A stretch of 64,000 nt of DNA, taken from NCBI GenBank assembly GCA_963662545.2, contig CAXXLL010000003.1, forward strand, positions 2,016,001-2,080,000, read 5' to 3'. Below are positions 12,309 through 32,979 of this stretch, in pieces (position 1 is the first letter of the stretch; every line of letters starts with the position of its first letter). The DNA is from Gammaproteobacteria bacterium. Its GTDB lineage: Bacteria > Pseudomonadota > Gammaproteobacteria > Ga0077536. A program made the position numbers and the translations under genes. Below the pieces are notes generated by a model. That model ran no database searches, was not told the DNA's origin, and was given only the letters and a program-made list of their open reading frames with translations.

Positions 12309-12469
12309 CAGGTTGTTGAAAAACGATGTCCCTATCGTTTTTCAACTCGCAAGACGAAAACGCGGTTTCCGTCTTGCTCCATCAATCAAGCACATAGCGT
12401 GCTCGATTGATGCCGGCACATCCCTGTGCCGGGCACAGGCTGTCGAAAAACGAGTTTTTCAACAGCCTG
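12309..12469. mobile_element. 161-bp MITE with CTAA target-site duplication
   Basis: CAGGTTGTTGAAAAA ... TTTTTCAACAGCCTG TIRs; CTAA at 12305-12308 and 12470-12473; internal hairpins. Confidence 0.8.
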
Positions 12470-24343: not shown

Positions 24344-26032
24344 ATGGCAACCGTCGATGGCGGCGTTTTGATAGGCCGGATTCTAAAAGAGCAAAACATC
24401 AAGTACCTGTTTTCCGTGAATGGAGGACACATCTTTCCGATCCTCGCGAATATCCGCGAGAACGACGTGAAGCTCATCCACATGCGCCACGAGCAGTCGA
24501 CGGCCTATGCCGCGGATGCGTATGCGCGCGTAACGGGAACGCCCGGCGTGTGTGCGGTCACCGCGGGCTGCGGACTCACCAATGCCGTCACGGGCCTGTG
24601 TTGTGCGGGCTTGACGAACAGCTCGGTGGTCTGTCTTTCCGGCCAGCATCCAACCACCGAGGACTTAATCGGTTCATTTCAGGAGGCCTATGGATCCGAG
24701 GTCTTGGGATCGTTCGCGAAATTCACGAAGCGGGTGCTCGACTGGTCGACCATCGAGGTCGATCTACGCCAGGCTTTCCGTGAAGCGAAAAATCCTCCGC
24801 AGGGGGTCTCGCTGCTCGAGATCCCGACCAACATTCTTTATCAGTCCGGGGAAGAGGAAAAACAGCGGCCGGGGGCGAAGATTTACGAGCCGGACGCACT
24901 GCGTTCACAGGGTGATCCGCGCAGCATCGAGCGGGCTGTCGAGCTCTTGTTCAAGGCAGAGCGTCCGCTGATCGCGGGCGGCGACGGCATCTTCTGGTCT
25001 GACGCGGCGGCCGAACTCAAGGAACTCGCGGAACTCACCCACACCCCGGTCTATTGCCGGCGCGCAGGGCAGGGCGCCTTGGATGAAGCGCATGCGCTCG
25101 CCGTCCGAGGTGCTTGGAAGAAGCCCTTTACGGGACAGGCCGACCTCGTGCTCGCCATTGGTTTCCGCTTCTGGAGCGGCGAGAAATTCGGGCAGCCGCC
25201 CACCTGGACAGACAAGGCGACTTACATCCAGGTTGACACCGATCCGCATCGGGTCGGCTGGCATGTTCCGGCTGAGATCGGCATCGTCGGCGATCCCAAA
25301 CTCGTGCTGCGCCAGTTCATCGACAAGATCAAGGAGATGAAGCTCGACTTTGATTCGAAGGGCGAGAGCCCGTGGATGAAGCAGATGGCGGAAGTGCGCC
25401 AGAATTACGAAAAGATGATCGCCGAGCGAGCACAGAAAACCCACGACGAAGTTCCCATCCATCCGGATCGGCTGACCAAGGATCTCATTTCGGTGATCGA
25501 CGACGACGCCACCCTGGTCGTCGACAGCTTTACCTTGAGCGGTTACACCAGCCAGTGGTTCACCGCCCACCGCATGGGTCAGATCGTCGACGCCGGGCCG
25601 CTCGCACCCGTCGGGCATGGTGTCGGCATGGGCATCGGCGTGCAGTTGGCGCGCCCGGGCAAGCAGGTCGTGGTGGTTTCGGGTGACGGCGGCCTCGGCA
25701 TCGGGGGCATGGATCTCGAGACCGCGGCCAAGTATGAGCTGCCGATGGTGACGCTGTTGTGGAACAACAGCTCCTGGGGCCCGGGTTTCGAAGCCATGCC
25801 GCTCTTAAAAGGGCGCACGGATCCTTTCGATATGATTTCCGACATTCGCTACGACAAGGTGTTCGAGCCCATGGGTCTATATACGGAACACGTGGAGACG
25901 CCGGATCAGATCATACCCGCGCTGGAGCGGGCGTTTGCGTCAGGCAAAACCTCACTGATCAACGTCGTCGGCGACAAGCGCTACGGTCATCCGTCGCTCG
26001 GCGGCAACCTGCTGGGCTCGACGCAGTTGTAA
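24344..26032 (+). CDS. Thiamine-diphosphate-dependent enzyme (ALS/2-hydroxyacyl-CoA lyase-like)
   Basis: RHEQ..AYAADAYAR, GDG(x24)NN motif. Confidence 0.92.
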   Translation: MATVDGGVLIGRILKEQNIKYLFSVNGGHIFPILANIRENDVKLIHMRHEQSTAYAADAYARVTGTPGVCAVTAGCGLTNAVTGLCCAGLTNSSVVCLSGQHPTTEDLIGSFQEAYGSEVLGSFAKFTKRVLDWSTIEVDLRQAFREAKNPPQGVSLLEIPTNILYQSGEEEKQRPGAKIYEPDALRSQGDPRSIERAVELLFKAERPLIAGGDGIFWSDAAAELKELAELTHTPVYCRRAGQGALDEAHALAVRGAWKKPFTGQADLVLAIGFRFWSGEKFGQPPTWTDKATYIQVDTDPHRVGWHVPAEIGIVGDPKLVLRQFIDKIKEMKLDFDSKGESPWMKQMAEVRQNYEKMIAERAQKTHDEVPIHPDRLTKDLISVIDDDATLVVDSFTLSGYTSQWFTAHRMGQIVDAGPLAPVGHGVGMGIGVQLARPGKQVVVVSGDGGLGIGGMDLETAAKYELPMVTLLWNNSSWGPGFEAMPLLKGRTDPFDMISDIRYDKVFEPMGLYTEHVETPDQIIPALERAFASGKTSLINVVGDKRYGHPSLGGNLLGSTQL

Positions 26033-26437
26033 GCGTCAGCGGCGCAGAAGGAACGCGATAATCAGAAAGTGATCTGAATCTCGCCGCGCACGGCGAAAGG
26101 CGCCCCCGGTGTCAAGCGCAGCGCGTCCGATTGGCTGCCCTGGATGAAGGATTCGTCGGTGAGATTCTCGAACCGCATCTGAAATTCGAGATGCCGAGAG
26201 TACTCCCATTGGACGAAGGCATCGGCGCGCACGTAGTCGTCGAGGCGGAGGGCGAGTTCGTCGGGGTTGAGACTCGCCTGCCGTCCGCCAACATAGTTGA
26301 CCGCCAGGCCAAGCTTGAGGTCTTGTGGACGCCGCAACGATGCAGTGTACGTCGTCAGCAGGCCGCCTTGATGACGCGGGGCATTCAGCGCGCGCGTGCC
26401 ATCCGGGATGAAGGGGTCGTTAGTGATCTCGGTGTCG
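26011..26437. repeat. 427-bp direct repeat, copy 1 (copy 2 at 32553-32979)
   Basis: Last codons of the ThDP gene, the intergenic spacer and the 3' end of the TonB receptor are duplicated. Confidence 0.92.
26062..26437 (-). pseudogene. 3' fragment of the TonB-dependent receptor
   Basis: Near-identical to the C-terminus of 32604-34766. Confidence 0.9.
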
Positions 26438-28344: not shown

Positions 28345-28501
28345 AGGTATAAGCCGAATAAACGCCCTTTTCCGCAAATCCGTCGAGTACCGCCAGGTCA
28401 TCCAACAGTCGTCAACCTGCGCTTCGAGGCGGTGTTGGCCGGAATTGCGCCTCGGAGTCAGCAGGAATCCCGCATTTCAGGGCGATTTTCGAGGTGTTCC
28501 G
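28345..28501 (-). repeat. IS91/ISCR oriIS-like end, copy 1 (157 bp)
   Basis: Near-identical to 30274-30430; minus strand ends GGCGTTTATTCGGCTTATACC, resembling ISCR oriIS termini. Confidence 0.75.
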
Positions 28502-30140: not shown

Positions 30141-30682
30141 ATATCTCGCTCTCCACCCTCGCTCTCCACTCGAAACCGAAACTAATTCTCAGACTTGCAC
30201 GCTCCGGATTTAATTTTCAAGCTCGGACAATAATCCCAGTTGCCGGAGTTGACTGGCTGAAATGAACCTCGCTAGGTATAAGCCGAATAAACGCCCTTTT
30301 CTGCAAATCCGTCGAGTATCGCCAGGTCATCCAACAATCGTCAACCTGCGCTGCGAGGCGGTGTTGGCCGGAATTGCGCCTCGGAGTCAGCAGGAATCCC
30401 GCATTTCAGGGCGATTTTCGAGATGTTCCGACCGTTGGCACGATAGCGACCGTGCCGCGTCGCTGGGTATCGCAGCCTCGGAGTAGCATGTGGGGATGCC
30501 CGTGTATCAGGCGAACAAGCTGGCCTGGGGCGGCGCCCGACACGGGGGAAAATGCCGGGCGGCGCCGGCAGCGTCTTTACGGTCGAGGTGGGTGAGGATC
30601 TTCTCGATGACCACCGGATCCTCGATGCAGGCGATGATCTTGACGCGGCCGCCGCAAGTCCTACAGGTCTCGATGTCGATGT

Positions 30683-30729
30683 GGCCTACAGGGATGTAGG
30701 TCAGGGGCGTGAGCAGGACGCGGAAGCTT
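30683..30729. repeat. 47-bp mini-insertion (family C) in transposase codon FN|ID
   Basis: GGCCTACA-GGGA-TGTAGGTC hairpin; removal restores RVFNIDIETC. Confidence 0.8.
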
Positions 30730-30761
30730 TGAATACCCGCTTCAAGCGCTGCGCCCAGGTC

Positions 30762-30812
30762 GCCGCTCTTGCGCATCCCTGCGCCCGCGGCATTAGTGCA
30801 TCCCTGCACGTC
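30762..30812. repeat. 51-bp mini-insertion (family A) in AM|TW
   Basis: GCGCA-TCCC-TGCGC and GTGCA-TCCC-TGCAC hairpins; removal restores AAMTWAQR. Confidence 0.88.
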
Positions 30813-30941
30813 ATGGCTGCCCGGCGTTCGGCGGGCGTTGTGTCTTCAGGCACATCCGACGCGCCGGCCTTGCTGCCCTTGCCGCGCTTGGCCGGCGTCA
30901 CCTGCGCACGATGCGCGCTGTTGGGGGCGAACACGCCGTGA

Positions 30942-31013
30942 CAAATTTATCTGGAATAAATTTGGACAACCGAAGGTTGCCCGAAGGGTGAGGAACAGGG
31001 ATGTTCCTCATCC
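30942..31013. repeat. 72-bp mini-insertion (family B) in RF|HG
   Basis: Four hairpins; removal restores NLTRFHGVF. Confidence 0.88.
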
Positions 31014-31369
31014 AATCGCGTCAGGTTGACCCTGGGCTTGGGCACCAGGGCGACCAGGCGGGCGATAAAATCCAACGGCTCGAAGATGACGTGCGTGGTG
31101 CCATCTCGGTACGGCGTCTTGAGTTGGTAACGCACGTTGCCGTTGGTCGTGAGCGACAGCCGCTTTTCCGACACCGCCGGCCTTGCAATATAGCGGCACA
31201 AACGTTCCAGCTTCTTGCGTTCATCGGCCCTGGCCGCGACCCCCGCATGCAGCGAGAAGCCAGCCACCGTGCCCACCGAGTTAGCGAACGGCTCATTGCA
31301 ACTCGGCAGGGTCTGCAGCGTGAACACCTTGCGCCCTTGGCTAGCGGCCCCACCGCGATGCGGTACGTG

Positions 31370-31421
31370 GCCGCTCCAGCGCATCCCTGCGCTCCGCGGC
31401 ATTCGTGCTTCCCTGCACATC
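31370..31421. repeat. 52-bp mini-insertion (family A) in SI|TYR
   Basis: Removal restores GHSITYRIAVGP. Confidence 0.85.
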
Positions 31422-31523
31422 ATCGAGTGGCCAAAGAGCTCATCCAGCGGCCCCGCTTCCCTGGCCTCCCCGGACAGATAGCGGTTCTCGGTATCACGTT
31501 CCAGCAGCCCTTGACGCTCCAGA

Positions 31524-31595
31524 CAAATTCGCCAGGAGCGAATTTGGACGCACGCCGTGCGCCCGCAGGGGGCGCGCCAAGGATGGCGCGCATCC
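31524..31595. repeat. 72-bp mini-insertion (family B) in RF|LE
   Basis: Four hairpins covarying with 30942-31013; removal restores RVGRFLERQG. Confidence 0.88.
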
Positions 31596-31730
31596 AAACG
31601 CCCGACGCGGTGCGCGATGGTGTGCGTCAATTGGGTGAGTTCGGTACTCGTCGGCGCCTTCAACCAGCGAAACCGCGTGCTCGATCCATTGGCGGCATCG
31701 ACATAGACACCATCCAAAAAAATCATGTGG

Positions 31731-31781
31731 GCCGCTGCTGCGCATCCCTGCGCCCGCGGCATTAGTGCATCCATGCACGTC
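31731..31781. repeat. 51-bp mini-insertion (family A) inside the HUH motif
   Basis: Removal restores LNLHFHMIFLDG. Confidence 0.88.
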
Positions 31782-32035
31782 AAGTGAAGATTTAGATTGA
31801 GCGCACTCCCAAATCGTTGGATCAGCGTGACCGCGCCAGTGCGAGCCGCGGTGCAGGAAAAGCCCGCCTTTTTGATCAAGTGCGTGGCAATGCAGCGGTA
31901 AACGATGCCGAGCACCTGGCCCATGATCGCCGGACGGCTGGCAAACAAAAAACGTAATGGATACGGAAAACTCAATACCCATTGGCGCACCGGCTGCGCG
32001 GGAAAGACCTCGTCCACCAGCAGCGCCGCACTCTC

Positions 32036-32082
32036 GGCAATTGCTCCTGCATTCCTCTACCTACTGCATCCCTGCAGTCGTC
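32036..32082. repeat. 47-bp mini-insertion (family C) in MAE|SAA
   Basis: ACTGCA-TCCC-TGCAGT hairpin; removal restores RRMAESAALL. Confidence 0.8.
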
Positions 32083-32128
32083 AGCCATGCGCCGGGCGCC
32101 ACAACTGCCGCAAAAACCGCGCCGTTTG

Positions 32129-32180
32129 TGACGTGAAGGGATTCACTAATGCCGCGGGCGCAGGGATGCGCAGGAGCGAC
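32129..32180. repeat. 52-bp mini-insertion (family A, inverted) in the Zn-finger Cys codon
   Basis: Removal restores VAFSCKRRGFCGSC. Confidence 0.85.
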
Positions 32181-32495
32181 CAACTGAACGCCACGCAGTG
32201 CTCGGCATGACAGCTCGCGCACCGAACGCGCAGAAAACCATGCTCGAGGCGTCCGCATTTGCGGTAGGCCTCGAACTCGCGCGCAACGTATCCCGGTAAT
32301 TCCCGGCCCTGTTCGGCCATCAGCGCTGAGAAGACTGGATAGTGTTGGTCGATTATCTGATAGAGGAGGGTCTGCTCGGGGCGGTGGCGCTCGTAGTACT
32401 CCGCCTCGCCCGAAACCGAGCCCGCGTCCGTGCCCGCAGGAATTCCTGCCATTTATCGCATCCTTGCGATATCGTCTCCTCATACAGCTTACCAC

Positions 32496-32552
32496 TATGG
32501 CCCGACACGCGGCGATCGCATCCGGCTAGCCGATACCGAGCGGTGGATTGAA
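32496..32552 (+). pseudogene. 57-bp fragment resembling the urease alpha subunit N-terminus
   Basis: YGPTRGDRIRLADTERWIE matches the UreC pattern (Y/F)GPTxGD(R/K)(I/V)RLADTxLWIE. Confidence 0.6.
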
Positions 32553-32979
32553 GCTGGGCTCGACGCAGTTGTAAGCGTCAACCGCGCCAGTGGGACGCGG
32601 GGATCAAAAAGTGATCTGAATCTCGCCGCGCACGGCGAAAGGCGCCCCCGGTGTCAGCCGCAGCGCGTCCGACTGACTGCCCTGGATGAAGGATTCGTCG
32701 GCGAGATTCTCGAACCGCATCTGAAATTCGAGATGCTGAGAGTACTCCCATTGGACGAAGGCATCGGCGCGCACGTAGTCGTCGAGGCGGAGGGCGAGTT
32801 CGTCGGGGTTGAGACTCGCCTGCCGTCCGCCAACATAGTTGACCGCCAGGCCAAGCTTGAGGTCTTGTGGACGCCGCAACGATGCAGTGTACGTCGTCAG
32901 CAGGCCGCCTTGATGACGCGGGGCATTCAGCGCGCGCGTGCCATCCGGGATGAAGGGGTCGTTAGTGATCTCGGTGTCG
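32553..32979. repeat. 427-bp direct repeat, copy 2
   Basis: Matches 26011-26437. Confidence 0.92.

Follow-up and report, generated by a model that had tools for sequence, protein, structure and literature searches.

Hairpin-structured mini-elements at recurrent positions in the transposase genes of an ISVsa3/ISCR2-like clade

The 64-kb stretch of DNA analysed here (the window) contains the remnant of an IS91/ISCR-family element of an ISVsa3/ISCR2-like clade at positions 30276..32552 on the minus strand, as delimited by homology to other copies. On the 3′ side of its gene, the homology of eight other copies ends at 30274-30285, and all element copies compared start with a GTATAAGCC-like sequence at this gene-downstream end, in each case beside unrelated flanks. 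The end at about 30276 is presumed to be the ori end. The upstream limit of the remnant lies at 32552 or before, and the DNA from 32553 onward is a duplicated host segment. The transposase gene, with Zn_Tnp_IS91 and Y2_Tnp domains, occupies 30507..32452 (minus strand; Pfam and MAFFT), and its sole lesions are eight inserts and a 2-nt indel. A native hairpin, ATCGCA-AGGA-TGCGAT, was read by eye at 32455..32470 (minus strand) around what is probably the ribosome-binding site. It is conserved among clade copies and resembles the CA-GGGA-TG hairpin of the inserts described below.

Inserts were called by MAFFT alignment of window positions 30480-32480 (minus strand) against an intact paralog of 516 codons from the same genome (G000:C3:2499002-2500549, L001). 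Eight blocks of 47-72 nt, 444 nt in total, and a 2-nt block at 31342-31343 were present in the window only, and three more 3-nt indels separated the two genes. Once the insert columns were left out, the window gene retained 507 codons, none of them a stop and one ambiguous. It shared 372 of 507 residues with the paralog, and the differences at codon positions 1, 2 and 3 were 18.8, 15.4 and 45.8%. The eight insertions, the 444-bp total, the 2-bp insertion and the otherwise near-intact gene reported by a sequence-only reading of this locus were thereby confirmed; five of the eight coordinates were exact and three were 3-6 nt off, owing to ambiguity of the junction alignment. That reading's assignment to IS91/ISCR was also borne out. 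Pfam searches with the pieces of the open reading frame gave Y2_Tnp (PF04986, E 4.9e-25) and Zn_Tnp_IS91 (PF14319, E 2.7e-06), and the closest named relatives of the intact paralog were ISVsa3 transposases, with 74% identity to ISVsa3-type copies in the best segment. The paralog scored 695.9 bits against the NCBIfam model of ISCR clade Ia (NF052416), below the cut-off of 925, and by this model would be a relative of that clade and not a member.

From low to high coordinates, the first insert is A1 (30683..30729, plus strand, paralog codon ~456), which is 47 nt long and forms the hairpin CCTACA-GGGA-TGTAGG. It is followed by a 51-nt B insert with two TCCC-loop hairpins and a CGTC end (30762..30812, alignment block 30768-30818, plus strand, codon ~445) and by a 72-nt C insert with four hairpins and an in-frame TAA (30942..31013, plus strand, codon ~402, RF↓HG, the arrow marking the insertion). 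The 2-nt indel (31342..31343) is 27 nt from a 52-nt B insert (31370..31421, plus strand, codon ~284); together they add 54 nt, and the frame on both sides is in register. The second 72-nt C insert (31524..31595, alignment block 31527-31598, plus strand, codon ~250) belongs to a second subfamily, with compensatory changes in all four stems. Another 51-nt B insert (31731..31781, plus strand, codon ~206) lies within the HUH motif, which reads NLNVHFHM in the intact paralog and is split in the window (HL-17 aa-HM). The 47-nt insert A2 (32036..32082, alignment block 32039-32085, plus strand, codon ~122) holds an in-frame stop at 32081-32083. The last, a 52-nt B insert in the zinc-finger region (32129..32180, minus strand, codon ~105), is oriented opposite to the other seven. 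The interruption of conserved motifs, the occurrence of both orientations and the lack of visible target duplications at the insert junctions in the alignment with the paralog all agree with the sequence-only reading. In its present form the window copy is dead: it has stops at 32081-83 and 30947-49, and A1 shifts the frame.

The inserts were shown to be mobile mini-elements of a REP/BIME-like kind, non-coding and hairpin-structured, which fall into the four families A1, A2, B and C. Three families had been proposed, with the two 47-nt inserts as one, but nhmmer searches seeded with each of these recovered separate sets of 7 and 20 copies. All four families have the CA-GGGA-TG hairpin in common, with stems of 5-9 bp around this shared core, and their copy numbers range from 7 to 57. 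As single-stranded DNA all eight inserts folded better than shuffled sequences (z −2.1 to −7.6). The C fold comprised 26 pairs in four helices; 91.3% of cells were paired, and in 15 pairs both partners had changed. Its covariation score of 0.461 compared with 0.177 for shuffles (0 of 500 reached it) and at most 0.156 when slid. Hairpins are present at both ends of the elements, and terminal inverted repeats and target duplications are absent. The B end was CACGTC in three of the four window copies and CACATC in one, and the two hairpins of B are direct repeats, not inverted. A2 ends in GTCGTC, A1 has GTAG within its stem, and C, which ends in ATTTG, was seen by eye to have neither a GTAG nor a CGTC tag. 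C and A1 have the GGGA loop on one strand, B and A2 on the other. A scan of 30300-32700 against Rfam 15 (E up to 10) gave four weak matches, none at the gathering score (best 24.9 vs 112 bits). Neither the ISCR ori-side end (GTATAAGCCGAATAAACGCCC...) nor the stretch ahead of the start resembled the element ends, the sole likeness being in the ribosome-site hairpin, and an origin of the elements from ISCR ends was rejected.

No further copies of the four families were found elsewhere in the window, as had been claimed, but genome-wide the families are less confined: copies of C and A2 are also present at about 30 non-homologous sites in the spacers between housekeeping genes. A related hairpin at 12413-12432 is part of a repeat of about 180 nt that is complete at nine loci. 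When nhmmer was combined with the model R1, 51 of 96 copies in the genome were in or beside fragments of one transposase clade, compared with 49 of 89 by nhmmer only; R1 was made from copies in this genome, and the related genomes cannot count as independent samples. The clade fragments total 20,026 nt, or 0.36% of the genome. Copy density was thus about 2.5 per kb in 20 kb of clade DNA, as against 45 copies in the other 5.56 Mb, where copies were intergenic, in arrays and within a DDE-type transposase gene. All seven A1 copies in the genome lay in clade copies, six of them mapped to codon ~456. The classical GTAG REP of the same genome, which is RAYT-flanked, served as control, and 4 of its 148 copies were in or beside clade fragments, about the expectation for non-coding DNA.

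These densities bear on neutral accumulation, in which dead transposase copies are simply tolerant DNA and an element that entered once was multiplied by copying of the insertion sequence. Insert-bearing copies are indeed broken, some recent duplicates have all inserts in common (e.g. C3:2759k/2772k and 2694k/2702k/2710k), and the classical REP is found in clade fragments too. However, the excess in clade DNA, the youth of the inserts relative to the split of the host copies, the scatter of occupied copies on the host-gene tree and the presence of different families at one bond all speak against it. This explanation was already disfavoured and we consider it very improbable.

Inserts recurred at at least 12 sites, at codons ~105, 122, 206, 250, 261, 284, 286, 383, 402, 445, 456, 461 and 475. 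As the local alignment was noisy outside homologous parts, insert rows were used only where independently confirmed. Codon 105 is occupied by both B and A2, and in the HUH motif two other clade copies carry a C element at the identical bond that holds B in the window. C was found in both orientations at codon 383 and near 460-461, and codon 402 holds three C subfamilies, with 10 copies in this genome. The six B copies at codon 445 all have the same CTT triplet. Individual sites mostly hold their own element variant, across genomes too, and distinct site-by-family events fell into about 13 in one orientation relative to the gene and 5 in the other. In other genomes, all five C matches of G004 were in or between clade fragments, B was present at codon 105 in G020 and L075 in the same orientation as in the window, and Nitrococcus mobilis has a copy at codon ~461; element copies were also found in G006, G011, G017 and G020. 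In a plasmid collection, 4565 records matched the host-gene part only, and the ISVsa3 alignments began exactly at an insert boundary; widespread ISVsa3 copies in other bacteria are without inserts.

In 17 pairwise comparisons the inserts were 89-100% identical and their 60-nt flanks 64-93%. On average, pairs of inserts were 88-99% identical and pairs of flank bins 40-88%; taken overall, inserts were 88-100% alike and flanks 55-85%. The 20 nt adjoining the inserts were 70-88% alike, as against 40-76% further out. In several independent pairs the first flank differences appeared 3-7 nt from the insert ends, and then at every third base. On a host-gene tree of 25 segments, seven of them occupied at codon 402, the occupied copies were scattered and well-supported branches forced at least four gains or losses. 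Comparison of these sequences indicates that insertion was repeated and independent, without target duplication, at about a dozen fixed positions in the transposase genes of one ISVsa3/ISCR2-like clade. Enrichment, site recurrence, inserts more alike than their flanks and at least four independent changes also uphold the earlier view that the pattern reflects targeting and not random decay.

An alternative account of the same pattern is copy-to-copy homing, in which a few primary insertions were copied into the corresponding position of further clade copies, either by gene conversion or through single-stranded rolling-circle intermediates annealing to paralogs, flank mismatches being repaired back while the loop was kept. 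It would account for only this clade being affected, and it agrees with the mostly single variant per site (the B copies at codon 445, and A1 in clade copies only), with the location of the sites in the best-conserved motifs and with the greater likeness of the 20 nt next to the inserts. However, the paralogs are just 70-80% alike, and with flank differences 3-7 nt away the conversion tracts would need to stop exactly at the inserts. Different families or subfamilies at an identical bond require repeated de novo insertion, and the intergenic loci of C and A2 are not homologous. We consider homing distinctly unlikely.

We also considered that the inserts might be removable intervening sequences, precisely cut out as DNA or RNA, which would still allow the transposase to be made and would gate its expression. 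Over 507 codons there is no lesion besides the inserts and one 2-nt indel, and divergence is mainly at third positions; the inserts of 51, 72, 72 and 51 nt are each divisible by three, and the frame is regained by 52+47 and by 52+2. Seamless excision is known for IS200/IS605-type elements. Contigs from a public run tiled the region with no differences and spanned the junctions between inserts and gene, so mis-assembly, which the sequence-only reading had named as a possible refutation, is unlikely. Contigs at 88% likeness or more contained joints from which precisely A1, C, A2 or B (47, 72, 47 and 52 nt) is missing, but at this threshold such joints may stem from paralogs or other strains and therefore only show that empty alleles exist. 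RNA cover was limited to a single run (X20, 4 of 30 bins), in which a 205-nt metatranscriptome contig (32091-32295, no differences) retained the B insert, DNA carry-over being possible. Translational bypass of the gene 60/byp type was rejected after inspection by eye of the C insert at codon 402, where no matching take-off and landing codons were seen. The inserts are young (0-6% divergence), so a burst of insertions accounts for the lack of other decay. The elements also occur in both orientations and between genes, match no Rfam family at threshold and are absent from every fully intact copy seen. Precise removal, of which there are only weak hints, appears improbable.

The reading we prefer, to which we give an even chance, is that an HUH-type enzyme of the host moves the elements in single-stranded form and that they are hyperparasites of rolling-circle transposons. 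A RAYT or IS200/Y1-like enzyme would mobilise them, and they would enter single-stranded DNA beside a short motif. Of the 50 C copies listed, nearly all had the flanks (G/C)A↓...↓A(A/G), and the C motif may be GA↓AA when read on the element strand, which corresponds to TT↓TC in the Phe-His codons of the gene. The frequent hits in ISCR elements would follow from their exposure as single strands during rolling-circle transposition, and diverged copies would offer the same target because coding motifs are conserved. Six of the 20 relatives without a match to the clade protein carry C elements, so the elements would not depend on the ISCR enzyme; this was counted in favour of the hyperparasite reading, together with the fold, enrichment, recurrence, insert youth, tree and other-genome results above, the HUH-like anatomy of the elements and the presence of RAYT genes, one above the NCBIfam cut-off and four just below. 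The five Y1/RAYT-like genes of the genome lie at C3:129420-129905, C3:2366037-2366702, C2:805230-805964, C2:1232580-1233509 and C2:1485471-1486001.

Several observations were counted against it. The one clear RAYT (C3:129420-129905) is flanked by a different REP (GTAG). No perfect hairpin of at least 6 bp with a GGGA loop was found within 900 nt of seven Y1_Tnp matches, and no CA-GGGA-TG hairpins flanked the five Y1 loci, the motif scan giving two chance matches in or beside coding sequence. The cognate enzyme of A1, A2, B and C was not found among the five Y1/RAYT loci examined. The four B sites shared no flank motif or tetranucleotide, and 60-nt folds of 11 empty sites on both strands revealed no common hairpin context. 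Orientation was biased and not uniform, the position of the GGGA loop on opposite strands in C/A1 and B/A2 would not be expected from a single transferred-strand target, and site-specific variants fit copy-to-copy spread equally. Among the mechanisms suggested earlier, hyperparasitism of single-stranded intermediates remains the best fit, although no cognate RAYT turned up among the loci examined.

A more specific version is tentative and rather unlikely: the elements may form a guild of protein-less hairpin elements specialised on ISCR/IS91 transposons, which recognise a dozen conserved positions of the transposase gene, probably when the transposon is single-stranded, enter without a scar and inactivate the enzyme for good or in a reversible way. 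The converse idea, that a host defence writes hairpin cassettes into the transposase genes of rolling-circle elements, fits the outcome alone, with catalytic and zinc-binding motifs interrupted and ISVsa3 copies in other bacteria insert-free. No candidate machinery was seen, and the elements also lie between housekeeping genes, in arrays and in a DDE-type transposase gene, as selfish repeats do; we regard such a defence as extremely improbable.

Di Nocera et al. (2013; PMC3733652) describe GTAG/CGTC-tagged REPs as short stem-loop units, single or composite and mostly between genes, and CGTC REPs as lacking a dedicated transposase. Some REPs lie inside genes, often those of DNA replication or repair, and recB of two Xanthomonas species has different REPs at about the same site. 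IS91 was not found in the text of that paper. Here B mostly ends in CGTC, A1 has GTAG within its stem, C has neither tag, and the search for a cognate transposase gave none; unlike the REPs described there, the present elements have few copies (7-57), more than half of these in one transposase clade, stems of 5-9 bp around a common core, and a dozen sites recurring across genera. The mainly extragenic location of REPs thus fails here, where 51 of 96 copies are in or beside the clade and the rest are intergenic. With IS200/IS605-derived miniature elements (PATEs) and REPINs (Y1 HUH, RAYT) the elements share hairpins near both ends, the lack of inverted terminal repeats and of duplication, and a genome with RAYT-type genes; a short flank motif is seen for C and none was common to the four B sites. 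They differ in that no Y1 gene carries these ends, the B hairpins are direct whereas those of a REPIN are inverted, and the choice of target seems much more restricted than a tetranucleotide would make it. Rickettsia palindromic elements (RPE) are palindromic coding-region inserts of similar size, also in multiples of three (51 and 72 here), and database gene calls P0002, P0007 and P0015 read through such inserts. Unlike with RPE, the host frame is not kept open, with two stops, a frameshift at the last 47-nt insert and a split HUH motif, which makes a tolerated peptide insert unlikely. Like the present elements, homing introns and inteins occupy the most conserved motifs, at the same position in diverged homologues and patchily on the host tree, but the elements here measure 47-72 nt, lack an endonuclease and match no ribozyme, and there is no sign of their removal from RNA or protein.

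Full-text searching of the literature brought up no paper on REP-like elements that target IS91/ISCR genes, which is not proof of absence. To our knowledge, REP-like repeats are usually seen as intergenic, and their movement has never been watched. The four families described here show dated, repeated and position-specific insertion, and since occupied and empty alleles exist side by side, their mobility and target choice are directly testable. Their repeated landing in transposase genes is an unusual example of mobile elements that prey on others of their kind. The single-stranded rolling-circle mechanism of the ISCR/IS91 group is poorly understood. If single-strandedness explains the targeting, the elements would naturally report at what time such transposons become exposed and which strand is involved, and they would be a case of small parasites limiting a larger one. 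If the guild reading is true, the transposon family to which ISCR2/ISVsa3 belongs would be subject to hyperparasitism or natural containment.

An IS91/ISCR-family transposase gene (Pfam Y2_Tnp and Zn_Tnp_IS91) lies in pieces on the minus strand of the window at 30507-32452. One intact copy is present in the same genome, G000 (in which the window is C3:2016001-2080000), a paralog of 516 codons on contig C3 (C3:2499002-2500549), to which the window gene was aligned at 78% identity. The alignment showed eight window-only blocks of 52, 47, 51, 72, 52, 72, 51 and 47 nt, as well as one of 2 nt at 31342-31343. Five of the eight are identical to the inserts delimited in the sequence-only reading, and the other three are off by 3-6 nt because the junctions are ambiguous. 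Once the insert columns were left out, the window gene had 507 codons and no stops; 372 of the 507 residues were the same as those of the paralog, and codon positions one, two and three differed in 18.8%, 15.4% and 45.8% of cases. The open frame and the mainly third-position differences indicate that the host gene was functional while it diverged. Its damage comprises the inserts and a small indel and nothing besides, and in its present form the gene is dead. In-frame stops lie within inserts of the families A2 (32081-83) and C (30947-49) described below, and the last 47-nt insert shifts the frame. Contigs from a public run tile the region with 0 differences and span the gene/insert junctions; an assembly artefact, the possibility raised earlier, is therefore an unlikely source of the inserts.

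The inserts had been taken as three families. We distinguish four, with nhmmer searches from A1 and from A2 returning separate copy sets. A1 occupies 30683-30729 and A2 32036-32082; B is found at 30762-30812, 31370-31421 and 31731-31781, with a reversed copy at 32129-32180, and C at 30942-31013 and 31524-31595. All four families have in common a core CA-GGGA-TG hairpin with a variable stem, and all inserts were more stable than shuffles when folded as single-stranded DNA (z -2.1 to -7.6). C consists of four hairpins in a row. Among 18 copies of C, 91.3% of cells were paired and both-sided changes occurred in 15 of 26 pairs; the covariation score was 0.461 against 0.177 for shuffles (reached by 0 of 500) and at most 0.156 for slid partners. 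The two window copies of C differ in all four stems, yet every stem is kept. B ends in CGTC and the A1 stem contains GTAG, which are the tags of the two REP super-families in Di Nocera et al. 2013 (PMC3733652). No insert matched Rfam. No target duplication was seen at the insert junctions, in line with the sequence-only reading.

Further hairpins were seen elsewhere. In the ISVsa3/ISCR2-like group of transposase genes to which the window gene belongs (hereafter the clade), a small hairpin, TCGCA-AGGA-TGCGA, is conserved at window 32455-32470 and in 8 other copies, with the ribosome-binding site in its loop; it and the B hairpin GCGCA-GGGA-TGCGC are alike at 10 of 12 bases. A repeat of ~180 nt with inverted ends (TTAGCAGGCTGTTGAAAAAC...), present around window 12413-12432 and at 9 other loci, contains a CA-GGGA-TG-type hairpin, CCGG(C/T)ACAGGGATGT(G/A)CCGG, which may be a nested mini-insert. 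At C3:857706-858197, adjoining a DDE_Tnp_1 transposase gene, the hairpin CCGACCATCCCTGGTCGG occurs four times at an exact 158-nt spacing.

G000 contains 57 copies of C (covariance model R1, built from G000 copies), 12 of B, 7 of A1 and 20 of A2 (nhmmer). Clade fragments number ~40 and span 20,026 nt, or 0.36% of 5.58 Mb, and clade coding sequence lay within 150 nt of 51 of the 96 element copies (C 25/57, B 11/12, A2 9/20, A1 6/7); nhmmer matches alone gave 49 of 89. Classical GTAG REPs (GTAGGAGCCCGCTTGCGGGCGAATC type), unlike A1, A2, B and C, flank on both sides the one clear RAYT of G000 (C3:129420-129905; 143 bits, cut-off 80). These REPs served as a control (at most 5 mismatches in 25; 148 copies). 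Only 4 of the 148 lay in or beside clade fragments, about the expectation for non-coding DNA, which indicates that the excess of the four families is specific. Two pairs of this REP type, at C2:666428-666486 and C3:2214465-2214542, are inside clade fragments or next to them. The remaining copies of the four families are at ~30 loci, almost all between housekeeping genes (70 ORFs scanned): some lie 3' of polA or 5' of dnaG, and others adjoin tmk and holB, or proS and pgi. A Mu-like DDE transposase gene is interrupted by two A2 copies. Since these other copies sit mostly between housekeeping genes, the elements are REP/BIME-like repeats of this organism that are strongly overrepresented in one gene family.

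The intergenic C and A2 clusters adjoining polA, tmk/holB and dnaG (C3:1649387-1649603, C2:2168226-2168344, C3:879808-879853) recall the reported preference of intragenic REPs for genes of replication and repair, a post hoc likeness in 3 of ~30 loci. A shorter C subfamily of ~66 nt, which has one hairpin fewer, is arranged head to tail in arrays of 2-3 units (C2:1819548-1819747, C2:2395160-2395293, C2:2528574-2528707) and is often fused with A2 as a composite intergenic repeat. In the A2 copy at C2:1377765-1377858, model positions 1-23 and 22-46 are parted by 46 nt, which suggests a mini-element inserted into another.

Each flank was mapped onto the paralog, whose codon numbers are used here. 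Insertions were located at codons ~105, 122, 206, 250, 261, 284, 286, 383, 402, 445, 456, 461 and 475, and at one further position 3' of the stop codon; occupancy among the copies covering each site ranged from 1/10 up to 10/18. At codon 105 the window gene has B, and the copy at C2:1181582 has A2. In the HUH-motif Phe codon, the bond that follows the second base is taken by B in the window and by C in two further copies. C lies both ways round at codon 383 and in either orientation near codons 460-461, and three C subfamilies occupy codon 402.

In 17 pairwise comparisons inserts were 89-100% identical against 64-93% for the adjoining 60 nt, and mean pairwise identity was 88-99% for inserts against 40-88% for flank bins. 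The first flank differences appear 3-7 nt from the insert ends, spaced every third base. The greater likeness of the inserts and the third-base differences indicate that the host copies had already diverged, as coding genes, when the inserts entered. Copy-to-copy spread by homology is the main rival, and the single variant per site agrees with it; conversion tracts would, however, need to end exactly at the inserts, where tract ends are sharp, and different families share one bond. A maximum-likelihood tree of the 306 nt that precede codon 402 (25 copies, 7 occupied) required no fewer than 4 gains or losses; well-supported branches force them, and every bootstrap tree shows them. The insertions thus appear to be independent hits and not inheritance. 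The earlier proposal of targeting instead of random decay is supported by the clade excess over the control REP, the recurrent codons, the insert/flank contrast and these changes.

The same positions were occupied in other genomes. G004 belongs to a different genus, and all 5 of its C matches fell within or between clade fragments (codons ~402 and ~383). C was found at ~383-399 in the genomes G006, G011 and G017, with an additional C at ~321 in G011 and B at ~366 in G017. G020, of another family of the class, has B at codon 105 and a partial A2 close to the position of the window's A2. Nitrococcus mobilis Nb-231 has C at ~461, with the same hairpin as the G000 copy at that site. One locus (L075) carries B at 105, the rest of the copy (codons 107-513, 407 aligned residues) being 92% identical to the paralog. 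Gene calls P0002, P0007 and P0015 from public protein sets translate through the same inserts. The inserts were absent from 70 ISVsa3-type loci of many species and from the plasmid collection, whose alignments begin precisely at the boundary of an insert. C was found in 10 of 10 relatives with the clade, partly by construction and among related genomes that are not independent, and in 6 of 20 without a clade protein match.

The possibility that the inserts are removable and gate transposase expression, put forward in the sequence-only reading, has only hints: frame-neutral lengths, a frame regained by 52+2 and by 52+47, and a host gene without further decay. A B insert is, however, retained in a 205-nt metatranscriptome contig. 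Another candidate raised there, hyperparasites of single strands, fits best. In their anatomy the inserts match HUH/Y1-moved single-strand elements, with a hairpin at either end, neither inverted terminal repeats nor duplication, and a CGTC-type end. None of the Y1 loci of G000 examined had these hairpins in its flanks. The ISCR enzyme is an unlikely mover, as the element ends are unlike the ISCR end and C occurs in the six relatives without a clade protein match. Nearly all C copies have (G/C)A as the left flank and A(A/G) as the right flank, in the gene TT|TC within Phe-His codons. So short a target cannot account for the excess in one gene family, and exposure may therefore matter. The rolling-circle movement of IS91/ISCR elements makes single strands available. 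Window 28345-28501 is a second ISCR ori-side end (97% to 30274-30430), and window 26011-26437 (427 nt) is 96% identical to 32553-32979, the 3' part of a TonB-dependent receptor gene just past the element's other end; the two copies bracket a monooxygenase gene, which looks like rolling-circle capture of neighbouring DNA.

HUH/Y1-type movement as a single strand would place the hairpin elements, and single strands exposed by rolling-circle IS91/ISCR elements would be favoured targets; against exposure, these hairpins are missing from the Y1 loci examined, orientation is biased but mixed, and the GGGA loop is on opposite strands in different families. Nested mini-elements are already known. Intragenic REPs are known as well, among them copies in genes for DNA handling and copies at similar sites of two species (PMC3733652). 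The full-text searches made returned no report of REP-like families at fixed IS91/ISCR transposase positions. As far as that literature was searched, what is apparently new is that several REP-like families have entered a dozen fixed positions of an IS91/ISCR transposase gene, repeatedly and across genera.
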